Notes under the pieces: generated by a model | The model's database searches: none | What the model was told of the DNA's origin: nothing | Seen by the model: only the letters and a program-made list of their open reading frames with translations | Shown here: piece by piece, positions 1 to 8,296 of the stretch | Numbering within the stretch: the first letter of the stretch is position 1 | How the letters are laid out: each line of letters begins with the position of its first letter | Assembly: GCF_003334385.1 (NCBI RefSeq) | Contig: NZ_QOWN01000009.1 | Direction: 5' to 3' (one strand) | DNA from: Escherichia coli | GTDB taxonomy: Bacteria; Pseudomonadota; Gammaproteobacteria; Enterobacterales; Enterobacteriaceae | DNA length: 64,000 nt | Made by a program: the position numbers and the translations under genes

Positions 1-2771
1 CACATGCTGAGGGTGCTGTCCGGGTGCAGCTCCGGGTCGGGCAGGCGGTTACCTGCCGGGTCTGTGGCATACGGGATGCGGATATCCAGATTCGCTGCGG
101 TGGTGTGAACGCCGGTCAGCCTGCCGGTGGTGCTGTAGCTGTAACTCCGGGTCTGGCGCGGGCTGCTGATGCGGATGAGTTCGCCGTTGTCGTTCCAGGT
201 GTAATCGCGGTCAGACAGCAGGCTGTTCAGGTGCTGGCTCTGTAACTGCCCGGCAGGGGTATAAGCGGTGGTGAGTTCATAACGGCCGAAGCTGCGCAGC
301 GTTTCCCGGTGCAGGCGGTCGCGGGTGTACTCCACCAGCGGTGTGTCGCCGAGTTTCATGCCTGCCAGGTAACCGCTGCCGTAGGTCAGCCATTCCACGG
401 CGGGCAGGCTGTCCGGTATACAGCGGTTCGCCAGCCCCTGCGCGTTGTACGCATGTCTGGTCTCATGCTGCCAGAGCAGTGCTTCCGTCTGCGGGTGATG
501 CACCGTCTGACGCTCACCGGTCAGCCGGCCTTTCTCATCATACCTGTAATGCACCGCCACCCGGTGCCCTTCGCTGATATGGCTGATGTCTGTCAGCCAG
601 CCACGTTCGTCATACTGCCACCGCTCTGCGGTTTCACCCTTCACGGTGCGGTGCGTGAGGCGGTCTGCTTCGTCATAGTGCCAGTGGGTGACCAGACCCT
701 CATCCTCGCTGCGGATAAGTTTGCCGGTCAGGTCGTGGTGATAACGCTGTGTGCGGCCGTCAAAGCCGGTTTCCTGTATCAGCCGGTCAAGTACATCGTA
801 ACGGAAGGTGGTGTGGCTGCCGTTTTCACTGGTCAGGCGGATGACCCGTCCGGCAGCATCGTATTCCATACTGCGCGTCAGCCCGCCCTGCGTGGTACGG
901 ACGGCCTTTCCCCACGCATCGTACTGTGTCCCGTTTCTGCTGCCGTCCGGGGCAATGACGGCGGTCAGGTCACCGGCGATGTTGTATTCATACCGCGTTT
1001 CATGGCCCTGCGTGTCTTTCACGGCAATTAACTGTCCACGGCTGTCGTATGCGCGGTACTGACTCAGCCCTTCCTCGCGGTGCACCGCCGTCATCTGCCC
1101 GAAGCGGTCATGGTCATAACGGGTTACATAACCGGAACAGTCGGTGAAGCTCAGCAACTGACCGTAACGGCTCCACGTCATGGTTTTCCGGCTGCCGGTG
1201 GCATCTTCCGTTGCGCAGGGTAAGTCACTGTGTGGATTATCATAACGGTAGCGGGTGATATCGCCGTCAGGGGCAGTTTCCTGAATCAGACGGCCCAATT
1301 CATCATATTCCCGGCGCAATTCCAGCCCGTCAGGCCCGGTGGCTGACGTTAACTGGTTGTGGTGGTTATAGTAAAACGCCGATGCCCTGCCATCCGGCGT
1401 GGTTATGCGCGTGATGAGGCCCGTCACCACATCCGGGCTGTACTCTGTTGTCCTGCCTGCGGCATCCGTCTGTGCCCTGAGCCTGCCCACGGCGTCAAAC
1501 TGACTCTGCGTGACGCTGCCGTCCGCGTGTTCCTTTTTCACCACCCGCTTCAGCCCGGCTTCGCCCTGCGTGTGCAGGACTTCACGGCGGTTCAGGCTGT
1601 CGGTGATGGTGATGCGGTCCTTCTCATACTGATACGTGTAACTTAAGCCTGCCGGGTTTAGCTGTTCTGTCACCCGCCCGTCGCTGTCGTAACGGTAACA
1701 GATTTCCGGTCGGCCCGTGTGACGGTGCGCCACCATCCGGCCCCGGTATTTATCATCGTAAGTAAAGCTGCGCACCTGTGTATTGCTGCGGTCATACACC
1801 GCCGCCAGTTCGCCGCGGGGCGTCCAGCCATAGCGCACCAGCGGCGCGGCAGGTAAATTCTCCGGGTATTCCGGGTCGTGCGTCAGCCACACGGCAGACA
1901 GACGGATGCCGTTGTCCCGGCCATATTCGGTGTAACCCGGCAGGGTATCAGGAAAAGCGGACGGTTCCGTCCCGCCGGAAATGGCCTGCTGCCGGGCTTC
2001 TTCTGCCCGCTGCGCCTGCGTGGTCAGTACCAGCCGGAAGTGACGCCAGGCACCATCCGTCACGCCGGTGATTTCGCCGCTGAATTCACCGGCGGCTTCG
2101 CGGTGGAACGTCTGTGTGCGCCCGAAGCGGTCCACCAGCCCGGTCAGTACCCGGTACGGCGGCAGCGGCGCAGGCAGCACCTCATCCGCTTCCGGCACCC
2201 GCTCACACCAACCGAGCAGCCACCACGGCCCCTGCGGACTGTTTGTCGCCAGATAACGATGCGGACTTAAGCGGAGTTCTTCCGGCAGCGCCTGCCAGAG
2301 TGCGGCCAGCCGGTGACCTTCATCCAGTTTCGCCACGCCGCCGCGCACCAGCCACAGTGACTCGCTGCGGCTGTAACCGTCCTCACCGGGAAACAGGTGC
2401 TCAAAATACAGGCTTCTGCCGCCGTTATCACTGAGTATCAGTGTGTTATCGCGCAGCTGTAAGCGGATATCCGCAGGCATTTTCCAGCCGGGGCCGAGGC
2501 TCCCCACCGGCGCGGGCGTTTTTGTCCGGTAACTGCTGTAGGTGCGGGAGAGGATGAACGGCAGCGGGCCGGGCAGGGCGATGTCGGTTTCACCGGGAAG
2601 GACCTTTGCACCGAGCAGGGGATTGACCGGATGGCCGGACGTCACTCCGCCGGGGCACACCGAACAGGCCACGCCGGTGGGGGCACCAATACGTACCCCG
2701 GCTGAACCCTGAACAATGCTACCGCCATACTGCGTCATGTCACCCTGACGCGCCGCCGGTTTTCCGCTCAT
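1..2771 (-). CDS. rhsB: Rhs-family polymorphic toxin core protein, N-terminal part only (runs off the window start)
   Basis: Hand translation of the minus strand from the ATG at 2771..2769 gives MSGKPAARQGDMTQYGGSIVQGSAGVRIGAP..., the conserved Rhs N-terminus. No minus-strand ORF with an in-window stop is listed for 1..2771, consistent with one long frame leaving the window. Position directly downstream of nikR matches rhsB in E. coli. Confidence 0.75.
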   Translation of the reverse strand, partial: MSGKPAARQGDMTQYGGSIVQGSAGVRIGAPTGVACSVCPGGVTSGHPVNPLLGAKVLPGETDIALPGPLPFILSRTYSSYRTKTPAPVGSLGPGWKMPADIRLQLRDNTLILSDNGGRSLYFEHLFPGEDGYSRSESLWLVRGGVAKLDEGHRLAALWQALPEELRLSPHRYLATNSPQGPWWLLGWCERVPEADEVLPAPLPPYRVLTGLVDRFGRTQTFHREAAGEFSGEITGVTDGAWRHFRLVLTTQAQRAEEARQQAISGGTEPSAFPDTLPGYTEYGRDNGIRLSAVWLTHDPEYPENLPAAPLVRYGWTPRGELAAVYDRSNTQVRSFTYDDKYRGRMVAHRHTGRPEICYRYDSDGRVTEQLNPAGLSYTYQYEKDRITITDSLNRREVLHTQGEAGLKRVVKKEHADGSVTQSQFDAVGRLRAQTDAAGRTTEYSPDVVTGLITRITTPDGRASAFYYNHHNQLTSATGPDGLELRREYDELGRLIQETAPDGDITRYRYDNPHSDLPCATEDATGSRKTMTWSRYGQLLSFTDCSGYVTRYDHDRFGQMTAVHREEGLSQYRAYDSRGQLIAVKDTQGHETRYEYNIAGDLTAVIAPDGSRNGTQYDAWGKAVRTTQGGLTRSMEYDAAGRVIRLTSENGSHTTFRYDVLDRLIQETGFDGRTQRYHHDLTGKLIRSEDEGLVTHWHYDEADRLTHRTVKGETAERWQYDERGWLTDISHISEGHRVAVHYRYDEKGRLTGERQTVHHPQTEALLWQHETRHAYNAQGLANRCIPDSLPAVEWLTYGSGYLAGMKLGDTPLVEYTRDRLHRETLRSFGRYELTTAYTPAGQLQSQHLNSLLSDRDYTWNDNGELIRISSPRQTRSYSYSTTGRLTGVHTTAANLDIRIPYATDPAGNRLPDPELHPDSTLSM

Positions 2772-2973
2772 CGTAAAATCCTTTTCTATTATTTTAATGA
2801 CAGTATCTTCATACGAAAAAGCGAAGAAAAACTTGTGGTCACAATGAATTGAAGATTTTTAGGAATATATTTAGAACGTTACAAAAGAGAAGGTTCGGAT
2901 AGGGTATTTAGAGAGGAATCAGGTGTGCTAGTGGCCCTTTGTTGATCGTTCACCAAAGGACCCAATAATAGAC

Positions 2974-5777
<2,804 letters not shown>

Positions 5778-5781
<4 letters not shown>

Positions 5782-6722
5782 GCGTGCGCTCCTTCATGAC
5801 GACGAATGCGCGGGTCCAGCGCGGCGTTGAGCAAATCGACAATCAAATTACAGACCACAAAAACCACCACCATCATCAGCGTAAAGCACTGGATCACCGG
5901 ATAGTCACGGTTAAAAATCGCCGACACCGCATAGCGCCCGACGCCCGGCCAGGCAAAGATGTTTTCGATAATCATCGTCCCGCCAATCAGTTCGCCGATA
6001 TGCATCCCCACGGCGGTGATCATCGGCAGCGAGGCATTGCGCAGGATGTGGCGACGTTCGGTCTGTTTGTCGTTCAGGCCGCGCAGACGCGCCCAGGTGA
6101 CGTGACGCTGACCGGCGACGTCCAGCATACTGGCGCGCAGTAAACGCGCGTTAATCGCCAGCGACATAAAGGCAATGGAAACCGCAGGCAAAATGATGTG
6201 CTGCCAGCCGCCGTAACCCATCGCGGGTAGCCATTGCAGATACACCGAAAACGCCATCACCAGTAAAAACGCCAGCCAGAAGTTAGGCATCGACACGCCA
6301 AGAAACGCGATGAAACGTACGGCGAAATCCGGCAGACGGTCGCGATGGCGCGCCGCCCAGATACCGAGCGGTACGGAAGTGAGCAGAATTAATACCAGCG
6401 CCGCACCTGCAAGTTCCAGCGTGGCGGGCAGGAAGTTCAGCATATCGTCCAGTACCGGGCGTTGGCTGGCGAATGAGATACCAAAGTCAAGATGCAGCGC
6501 CTTCCACAACCAGGTGCCGTACTGGACGTACAGCGGCTGATCCAGTCCCAGCATGGTGCGGGTAGAGGCCAGCATCTCCGGCGTCGGCGGCAGGTTAGAC
6601 AGACGCAAATAATCGAGCGCCGGGTCGCCGGTACCGAGGCGCAGCATCAGAAAAATGATCACCGAGGCGGCGAGCACCATCGGGATCAGCAGCAGAAAGC
6701 GGCGTAATACGTAACGCAACAT
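5778..6722 (-). CDS. nikB: Nickel ABC transporter permease NikB
   Basis: 314 aa hydrophobic ORF, binding-protein-dependent permease family; operon position. Confidence 0.93.
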
Positions 6723-8296
6723 TAAGGTTTCACCGGTTTAATCTGTTCGAACGGAATTTCGGTGGCGATCGGCGCGTAGGGGATGTTACCCAGCTCCGGT
6801 TTTGATACCACCATCATTGAGATGTAACTGATAGGCAGATAAACCGCCTCGTCATGCAGACGGGTCAGAATGTCGCGATACAGCGCCTGACGTTGCGTTT
6901 CGTCATGGGTCGCCAGCACTTCGCCGATCTCTTTATCAATCAGCGGTTTGTCGGCTAATCCTTGCTGTGCCTGGAAGTCAGCGTGTGACGGTACGCGCAT
7001 TGAACTGAGGAAGGCGTGTGGATCATATGGCGCGCCCCAGGTGCGGTGGAAAATCATGCCAAAACGACCGTCGCGCTGACGAGCATAGATACTGCTCTCT
7101 TCTTCGCCAATCAGCGAGACATCTGCGCCAATCTGGCGCATATCAGCCTGAATGATTTCCGCCATCGATTTGCTTAACGCATCGGTGCCGATGAACGAAA
7201 GTTCAATGCGCAGCGGCTGACCATTTTTCTCGCGGATGTCTTTGCCCGCAGGCAGCGTCCAACCGGCTTTTTCCAGCAACGCTTTCGCTTTTTGCGGATC
7301 GTACTGGCTCGGTTTCAGGCCGAGGTTGGCGTAGGGCACAGAAGGGGCAAACAGGGTGTCGGCGACCTGCTGGGTGCCATACAACGCGTTATCAATCAGC
7401 GATTTTTTGTTTACCGCGTAATTAAGAGCTTCACGTACTGCCAGCTCGTTGGTGGGGGCTTTGGCGGTATTGAGCGCCAGCATCACGGTTTCGATCGGCT
7501 GTGACAGTTGGGTGTGGTAAGCCGGATTCTGGCTAAAGCGGGCGAAGGTATCGAGCGGTAATAACCCTTCGTTTCCGTACAGCAGGTCGATATCGCCAGT
7601 TTCAAACGCCACCGCGCGGGTAGTCGGGTCCGGGATGACGTTAAAGGTGATCTTTTTAATCGCTGGCTTTTCGCCCCAGTAGTTTTCGTTACGGACGAAG
7701 ACATCGTACTGATTCAGTTTCGATTCCTGCAAAATCCACGGTCCGGTGCCAATCGGCGCTTTAATTCCGTTCATGGTTTCATGGTTTTTAAACTGCGAGG
7801 GAGCGATAAAACGGAAAGGACGGGGCAGGGCCAGTTCTTGCAGGAAAGGATAGTAGGCGCTTTTCAGGGTAATTTGCAGCTCTGTTTTACTGAGTGCTTT
7901 AACATCAACAATCTGGTTTGCCAGCTCCAGCCAGGCGTGACGTTGACGGTTATCGAGCACTGCGCGGAAGTTTTCTGCCGCCGCCTCGGCATCGAACGGT
8001 TCACCGTTGGAGAATTTCACGTCATCACGCAGGGTGAAGGTCCAGGTTTTACCATCTTCTGAATGAGTCCAGCTTTTTGCCAGCCACGGGATCACCGAAC
8101 CGTCTGCCTGATATTTCACCAATGGTTCATAAACCATGCTCTGGGCGAACATCTGGTTAGGCGTGTAAAGGTGCGGGTTTAGTGGCCCGACATTCACCGG
8201 CCAGGCGGTGGTGATTTCATCTGGTGCAGCGGCATGGACGATAAAAGACGCACAAGCCAGCAGCGCAAATAGAGTGCGGCGGAGTGTGGAGAGCAT
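6722..8296 (-). CDS. nikA: Periplasmic nickel-binding protein NikA
   Basis: 524 aa ORF with signal peptide [24 protein letters not shown]; family 5 solute-binding protein; first gene of nikABCDE-nikR. Confidence 0.95.

Follow-up and report, generated by a model that had tools for sequence, protein, structure and literature searches.

Most of an Escherichia coli rhsB gene at the edge of a 64-kb window: a probable caged toxin with a Tse5-type N-terminus

Among the Rhs proteins of solved structure, the one closest to the protein considered here is Tse5 of Pseudomonas aeruginosa (PA2684; PDB accession code: 8cp6), a proven type VI secretion system (T6SS) effector. Tse5 is cleaved between K47 and P48, its short N-terminal fragment is described as a PAAR-like domain required for secretion, DUF6531 is the N-terminal plug in its structure, and an aspartyl protease at the C-terminal plug sets its toxin free (PMC10684867). 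The protein considered here is encoded at one end of a 64,000-nucleotide stretch of Escherichia coli DNA (assembly GCF_003334385.1, contig NZ_QOWN01000009.1; the whole stretch is called the window below), where a minus-strand Rhs ("rearrangement hot spot") gene starts at position 2771 and runs out at position 1. It is practically certain that positions 1-2771 hold the 5' 65% of rhsB, the E. coli Rhs gene that follows nikABCDE-nikR. The best overall explanation, to which we give a probability of about 0.85, is that this 5' part of rhsB continues beyond the window with a DUF4329 toxin tip and the immunity gene yhhH, and that the product is a caged toxin delivered by a T6SS. The features on which this explanation draws are listed below.

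1..2771, minus strand: 5' part of rhsB, codons 1-923 of about 1,411; codon 924 is represented by its first two bases, at positions 1-2.
2685..2768, minus strand: single PAAR-type repeat, residues 2-29 (SGKPAARQGDMTQYGGSIVQGSAGVRIG), from alignment to the last repeat of PAAR proteins.
2604..2633, minus strand: predicted N-terminal self-cleavage site between H47 and P48 (HPVNPLLGAK), from alignment with Tse5.
2403..2636, minus strand: DUF6531, the N-terminal plug of the Rhs cage, residues 46-123 (Pfam PF20148, E=1.6e-17).
96..1820, minus strand: RHS/YD repeat region, the wall of the beta-cocoon, residues 318-892 (Pfam RHS_repeat, TIGR01643).

The minus strand from 2771 to 3 translates as a single open frame of 923 codons with zero stops, while the remaining five frames of 1..2771 contain 12-46 stops each. 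At the pooled stop frequency of those five frames (3.5%), the chance of a 923-codon open run is about 4e-15. The initial annotation had proposed an Rhs polymorphic-toxin gene that starts at 2771 and exits the window, with a frame open to the edge and about 920 codons present. All of this is upheld by the frame and by the RHS_core and Pfam matches: the six-frame check gave no in-frame minus-strand stop over 2771..3, the translation begins with MSGKPAARQGDMTQYGGSIVQGSAGVRIGAP as had been noted, and the codon count is 923 of 1,411. The NCBIfam profile RHS_core (NF041261) aligns residues 1-923 to its positions 1-937 of 1261 with 1939 bits, slightly below the 2000-bit cut-off for the sole reason that one third of the protein is absent. 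Pfam adds DUF6531 and at least 11 RHS_repeat matches (E<=0.001), and the TIGR01643 YD repeat matches with 9e-38; both the long repeat array and the DUF6531 plug that mark the Rhs/YD-repeat polymorphic toxins are present. The segment has 62% G+C, and 72% when third codon positions are taken alone; the window as a whole has 53%.

Other identities have been considered. A chance open reading frame (ORF), or plus-strand ORFs as the real genes of this segment, are ruled out by the stop-codon statistics and the codon register. The Pfam and NCBIfam scans show neither filamentous haemagglutinin repeats nor a two-partner secretion (TPS) domain, and no cdiB-like gene is a neighbour; a CdiA-type toxin of contact-dependent inhibition is ruled out, its matching domains being absent from both scans.

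Which Rhs gene this is can be told from its place and from its near-identity to annotated alleles. In a Megablast search of 5,426 complete E. coli genomes the segment falls on the annotated rhsB adjoining nikR, and the segment has both marks of the E. coli rhsB locus, the position directly downstream of nikABCDE-nikR and near-identity to annotated rhsB. The ATG at 2771 is the rhsB start annotated in RefSeq relatives. Its DNA identity to the annotated rhsB of enterotoxigenic E. coli (ETEC) H10407, SCU-104, SHP24 and K-12 is 99.6-99.9%. Over 3,400 ungapped bases there are 5 substitutions against H10407, 6 against SCU-104 and SHP24, and 13 against K-12, with zero insertions or deletions (indels) against the four alleles and 1-5 amino-acid differences in 923 residues. 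The window as a whole is a standard chromosomal stretch, from rhsB to rtcA, and is collinear with SCU-104 over 61.9 kb, from which it differs by 21 mismatches and one 10-bp indel. The rhsB gene seen here is a known, catalogued gene cut by the window edge, and its visible 923 codons match the catalogued alleles.

The few differences are unevenly placed. All 13 sites that differ between K-12 rhsB and the window are clustered in 1578-1801. The surrounding 291 bp of core sequence, window 1540-1830, recur with 100% identity in a second Rhs paralogue of SCU-104 (NZ_CP053284.1, 99154-99444) about 140 kb away, and also in rhsC of another strain. This patchy identity, together with the clustered K-12 sites, would fit gene conversion among Rhs paralogues.

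What lies beyond position 1 can be predicted from the relatives. In H10407, K-12, SCU-104 and SHP24, rhsB is 4,236 bp long, or 1,411 codons. The core of all four alleles ends with PISDIDPLGL at residues 1238-1247, a PxxxxDPxGL aspartyl self-cleavage motif, and is followed by a 164-residue tip. Pfam places the RHS core-end domain (PF03527) at 1143-1179 and DUF4329 at 1280-1398 (E=6.8e-39) in the relatives, where a core of 62% G+C is joined to a tip of 36% in the classical Rhs composite. Directly after rhsB, and overlapping its stop by 29 bp, comes yhhH, which encodes an NTF2-fold immunity protein (Imm-NTF2-2, E=3.4e-26); further downstream are a HEAT-repeat pseudogene, ISEc1 and yhhJ. Both the tip and YhhH are classified by Pfam, and NCBIfam has no match on either. 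DUF4329 was described by Zhang et al. 2012 as Tox-JAB-2 (motifs E, H[ST]H, S and D), with Imm-NTF2-2, which occurs in E. coli only, as its immunity partner, and was suggested to be a nuclease rather than a peptidase (PMC3482391). The tip sequences of the relatives contain the HTH motif. An in-silico study of enterohaemorrhagic E. coli (EHEC) cites the tip as an RNase domain and gives a proteasome-lid (JAB-like) structural match (PMC7216683).

That the tip and the immunity gene lie beyond the window start had also been claimed in the initial annotation, and the closest genomes support it with 488 further codons, the boundary motif, the tip and yhhH. Because near-identical relatives have them, the 488 missing codons and the immunity gene of the source strain almost certainly lie beyond position 1. 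The full arrangement from nikR through rhsB and yhhH onward occurs in 1,827 of the 5,426 complete genomes, about one third. The tips were surveyed in an evenly spaced sample of 60 genomes, with 23 nikR-linked loci: nikR-rhsB-yhhH is intact in 20 genomes, 11 have rhsB-yhhH without nikR at the same place, 9 match through another Rhs core only, and 17 have nikR without an Rhs of the RhsB clade. With 20 of the 23 nikR-linked loci intact, about 87% of nikR-linked RhsB-like heads have the DUF4329 tip directly attached.

The immunity gene itself is damaged in the two closest relatives, SCU-104 (L003, 10180-10446) and SHP24 (L005, 5437-5820). One additional A in an A7 run just past the rhsB stop of SCU-104 leads to the loss of the first 39 codons, which are hydrophobic and signal-like; in SHP24 yhhH is annotated as a pseudogene.

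We now consider the part of the protein that is visible. It comprises a 47-residue N-terminal piece with a PAAR-type repeat, the DUF6531 plug and most of the YD-repeat wall. The shell matches the solved Rhs proteins Tse5 (3.4e-91, the closest) and Rhs1 (8e-54), and also Tse15 and RhsP. Residues 2-29 align solely to the last repeat of free-standing PAAR proteins, which have three repeats each (9rce_c, 71-98 of 99; 4jiv_D, 67-93 of 93; also 4jiw_D and 8gra_J). The start of the protein had been described as the conserved Rhs N-terminus, which is right, with the refinement that it contains one PAAR repeat and falls short of a full PAAR domain. The Tse5 shell chain 8cp6_B opens with PVNPMLGSK, and its first residue is matched by P48 of RhsB, a register that would put cleavage between H47 and P48. 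No Tse5 N-terminal chain matched RhsB residues 1-47.

The prePAAR motif is defined as AARxxDxxxH (PMC8636562); RhsB reads AARQGDMTQY, in which Y replaces the zinc-binding H. There is no hydrophobic helix in residues 1-47, and no eagR gene is adjacent because nikR adjoins rhsB. In Rhs1, the equivalent of the RhsB N-terminus is a weak local alignment to residues 147-179, which come after the prePAAR motif, the transmembrane segment and most of the PAAR domain. From the Tse5 homology and the cut-site register, RhsB therefore probably belongs to the architectural class of Tse5 and not to the prePAAR-TMD-PAAR class (TMD, transmembrane domain) that depends on EagR.

A genetic link between this kind of protein and a T6SS is found in SCU-104. 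The site between aspV and yafV exists in three states among the close relatives SCU-104, K-12 and H10407, and in SCU-104 (4131001-4160206) it holds a complete T6SS-1, with tssA-tssM, two hcp genes and a vgrG flagged for an internal stop; an Rhs gene stands directly after this vgrG. The Tse5-type N-terminus of RhsB and its vgrG-linked homologue in SCU-104 make the T6SS cage-toxin mechanism the most likely one. Its steps past "cage protein" are modelled on Tse5, Rhs1 and the vgrG-linked T6SS-1 Rhs. The gene would continue for 488 codons that complete the shell and encode the RHS core-end domain, the motif PISDIDPLGL for self-cleavage and then the 164-residue AT-rich DUF4329/Tox-JAB-2 tip, and it would be followed by the overlapping yhhH. 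The protein would cut itself at both ends of the shell and retain the toxin inside the closed beta-cocoon, and the N-terminal PAAR-like piece would attach it to a VgrG spike. A T6SS (T6SS-1) would then fire RhsB into neighbouring bacteria, where the DUF4329 toxin would be released, and YhhH would protect sister cells and kin. Of these steps, real T6SS delivery in the source strain is one toward which we lean with some reserve.

A number of observations weigh against the reading of a complete, T6SS-delivered caged toxin, and those that concern the 3' end are considered together with the alternatives they favour. Neither the DPxGL motif nor the tip with its immunity gene falls inside the window, and the 3' end is drawn from relatives. 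It might bear a different tip, as an RhsA-tip hybrid or with the RhsB tip displaced, and an immunity gene that is not yhhH. Structures of this kind exist after nikR. In J53-type assemblies (L004, NZ_CP034595.1, 117414-121547) nikR is followed by a hybrid of RhsB head and RhsA tip (PVTNTDPLGL) and then by yibA..mtlA; the hybrid is identical to K-12 RhsB over the first 923 residues and is a product of rhsB x rhsA recombination, either as a real laboratory rearrangement or as an assembly choice, other J53 assemblies showing a normal rhsB. In two of the sampled nikR-linked loci nikR is followed by another tip and the RhsB tip is displaced downstream (H88-H89), and sequence exchange among paralogues is suggested by the identity of window 1540-1830 to the second SCU-104 copy. 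The J53-type structure has, however, been seen in J53-derived laboratory assemblies only, the DUF4329 tip is present in all four nearest non-laboratory alleles, and the RhsB tip is found in 20 of the 23 sampled nikR-linked loci, so that a different tip is decidedly improbable in the source strain. A gene truncated or interrupted just outside the window, as a pseudogene without a tip, is very improbable indeed. In a BL21(DE3) assembly (L012, NZ_CP081489.1, 6002-8749), a large rearrangement, one end of which falls within the Rhs core, interrupts rhsB near codon 916 and links it to tRNA-Cys/tRNA-Leu/yecA, a break that lies by coincidence within about 25 bases of the window end, and some genomes have IS1 insertions in or near the locus. 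Such damage is rare, the BL21(DE3) gene being the one broken case among the 23 sampled nikR-linked loci; it matches K-12 rhsB at 98.6%, whereas the window is 99.6-99.9% identical to intact alleles and its 923 codons have no sign of degeneration.

The remaining observations bear on delivery. The same gene could be an orphan Rhs that is not a delivered weapon, serving as an internal toxin/immunity (addiction or growth-control) pair or as a reservoir for tip recombination, which we regard as unlikely. It has the advantage that rhsB is detached from any vgrG or T6SS gene: the 64-kb window contains no T6SS structural gene, vgrG or eagR, the upstream neighbour is nikR, linkage of rhsB to vgrG or a T6SS cluster was not found, and the sole T6SS-related gene in the window besides rhsB is the Hcp-domain gene yhhZ, about 35 kb away. 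Moreover, rhsB is kept intact in K-12, where T6SS-1 is cleanly deleted from the aspV-yafV site (237099-240357) and a partial gene is fused to a partial ISAs1, and in H10407, where a sil/pco metal-resistance island and an Rhs remnant occupy the site (240420-275000) and T6SS-1 is absent, an absence that refers to the aspV site. A study of ETEC treats MG1655 as lacking known competition systems and reports between three and nine PAAR-Rhs effectors in each strain, distributed among nine chromosomal loci (PMC10761095). In Salmonella, internal promoters drive the expression of Rhs tips, which behave as type II toxin/antitoxin (TA) modules (PMC7043789), and the in-silico study of EHEC leaves it uncertain whether RhsA-C are carried by a VgrG, and by which one (PMC7216683). 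The frameshifted or pseudogene yhhH of SCU-104 and SHP24, the closest relatives, fits weak selection on a silent toxin and mildly favours the orphan. To these are added the features that the gene and protein lack: Pfam PAAR_motif (PF05488) gives no match on the RhsB protein even at E<=10, a complete PAAR domain is rejected with one repeat present against the usual three, and no sigma-70-like promoter was found in the minus-strand scan of the nikR-rhsB spacer. A literature search for yhhH and rhsB returned a genome announcement only, with no functional study of RhsB or YhhH found in the library searched.

Several properties of the locus speak against an undelivered role. The 923-codon frame is intact throughout and is conserved at 99.6-99.9% DNA identity among the four alleles compared, its N-terminus of the delivery type is retained and matches those of Tse5 and the vgrG-linked T6SS-1 Rhs, the closest relative SCU-104 has the complete T6SS-1 cluster, and a 140-kDa cage would be needless for a role as a TA module only. 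A narrower form, in which rhsB persists in lineages without T6SS-1 through its tip and YhhH as a self-addiction pair expressed from inside the gene, with the cage as a leftover or a recombination platform, seems to us quite unlikely; in a weaker variant of it, the 3' end of the source strain may bear an undescribed tip. We retain the caged toxin delivered by a T6SS as the preferred explanation.

The value of the locus lies chiefly in its correct annotation. Among the Rhs elements of E. coli, rhsB belongs to the founding ones, and it is named in RefSeq. It is settled that the initial call was right, that the antisense ORFs are to be ignored, and that the missing part can be predicted with good confidence. 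At the level of the family, the RhsB class has an N-terminus of the Tse5 type, PAAR-like and with one repeat, and its members are kept in strains with and without T6SS-1; for this reason they may either be delivered or act internally.

The other features of the window are given below.

309..1031, plus strand: antisense ORF artefact of 240 aa, in codon register with rhs; the same verdict holds for the other plus-strand ORFs in 1..2771.
2772..2973, minus strand: nikR-rhsB spacer, 202 bp, 35% GC.
2974..8296, minus strand: nikA-nikB-nikC-nikD-nikE-nikR, NCBIfam equivalog matches above cut-off for all six proteins.
38145-39323, minus strand: yhhZ, 392 aa, Hcp domain (TIGR03344, 118 bits; Pfam T6SS_HCP, 2.5e-11).

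The plus-strand ORFs in 1..2771 had been put down as antisense artefacts, and register, family scan and RefSeq all agree. The start of ORF 309..1031 is divisible by three, like the low ends of the rhs codons. With the two frames so aligned, a stop can arise on the antisense strand only opposite a TTA, CTA or TCA codon, of which the rhs frame has just 12 in 923 codons, and two of these rare codons, at 1031 and 245, bound the ORF. Three plus-strand ORFs were scanned (309..1031, 1878..2270 and 2114..2434), and none matches an NCBIfam family, and the RefSeq relatives have no annotated gene at the plus-strand ORF positions. These ORFs are by-products of the rhs codon bias.

On the upstream side, the nik genes have the same order in the annotated relatives and are neighbours of rhsB outside the toxin system. 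An AAGGA motif like a Shine-Dalgarno sequence lies at 2779-2783, 7 nt upstream of the rhsB ATG. The scan of the nikR-rhsB spacer showed no terminator-like site after nikR, and rhsB may be transcribed from a weak promoter of its own or by read-through from nikR.

Further into the window, yhhZ overlaps at its end with an intact yrhA (164 aa, YrhA family), and the pair spans 37654-39323 on the minus strand. The label "Hcp-HNH module" given to it earlier holds clearly for the Hcp domain; its HNH half depends on a weak nuclease signal, namely a weak Pfam HNH match (E=0.013) and a faint colicin-DNase match. Likewise, the view that the window touches two separate contact-dependent toxin systems is right in that there are two effector/immunity modules, rhsB and yhhZ, and overstated as to separate systems. 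The two are detached effector/immunity modules of one kind of machine, the T6SS.

Two more observations concern the rest of the window. The rtcR gene (61321-62909) is broken near 61931, where the window is without 10 bp (GTTCCGGCGA) that are found in SCU-104; the loss splits the gene into minus-strand ORFs 61599..62909 and 61321..61929. Its best full-length matches in the 5,426 complete genomes are only 91.7% identical and gapped at the break, so that the RtcR regulator either has a private frameshift here or was affected by a sequencing error. At 40199-40263 on the plus strand lies the small RNA RyhB (Rfam RF00057, 83 bits); no other Rfam family in the window scores as high as its gathering threshold.

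We close by comparing RhsB with the described systems. Photorhabdus Rhs1 (PDB accession code: 7q97) and P. protegens RhsA (PDB accession code: 7pq5) share with it the YD shell, a DUF6531-type plug region and the logic of double self-cleavage. These prePAAR-TMD-PAAR effectors differ in that they need EagR and have a 25-29-kDa N-terminal region, in which a prePAAR motif is combined with transmembrane helices and a complete PAAR domain. The start of RhsB corresponds to their last PAAR repeat, and RhsB has no hydrophobic helix and no eagR gene. With the Salmonella Rhs proteins the likeness is a tip and immunity pair that may be kept where delivery is absent; the internal promoters and the TA-like effect are reported there and not for rhsB (PMC7043789).

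Like Tse5, RhsB has a 47-residue N-terminal fragment, a predicted cut before PVNP(M/L)LG(S/A)K at residue 48, and the same order of parts, from the N-terminal fragment through the DUF6531 plug to the YD shell enclosing the toxin. The likeness seen is one of length and cut-site register, and the cut is preceded by K in Tse5 and would be preceded by H in RhsB. Tse5 further differs in its pore-forming tip and its dependence on a cognate VgrG spike (PMC10684867), while the RhsB tip, from the relatives, is DUF4329/Tox-JAB-2 and no vgrG is a neighbour.

The vgrG-linked Rhs of the E. coli T6SS-1 at aspV-yafV (SCU-104, WP_097748248.1) is 68% identical to RhsB over all 923 residues and has the same short N-terminus (GKPAARQGDMT...IVQGSAGV.IGAPTGVACSVCP...PVNPLLGAKVLP). 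At 1,414 aa it is similar in size, and no eagR-type chaperone gene lies between its vgrG and rhs. It differs in tip and downstream gene, and in place: the T6SS-1 Rhs stands directly after vgrG in a cluster with hcp, and rhsB stands after nikR, about 3.9 Mb away. The nearest comparison of all is with the E. coli rhsB-yhhH locus itself (K-12, WP_000015298.1; H10407, WP_000015288.1; SCU-104, WP_174147616.1). The site next to nikR and the start codon are the same, and in the visible part nothing substantive differs beyond a few substitutions.

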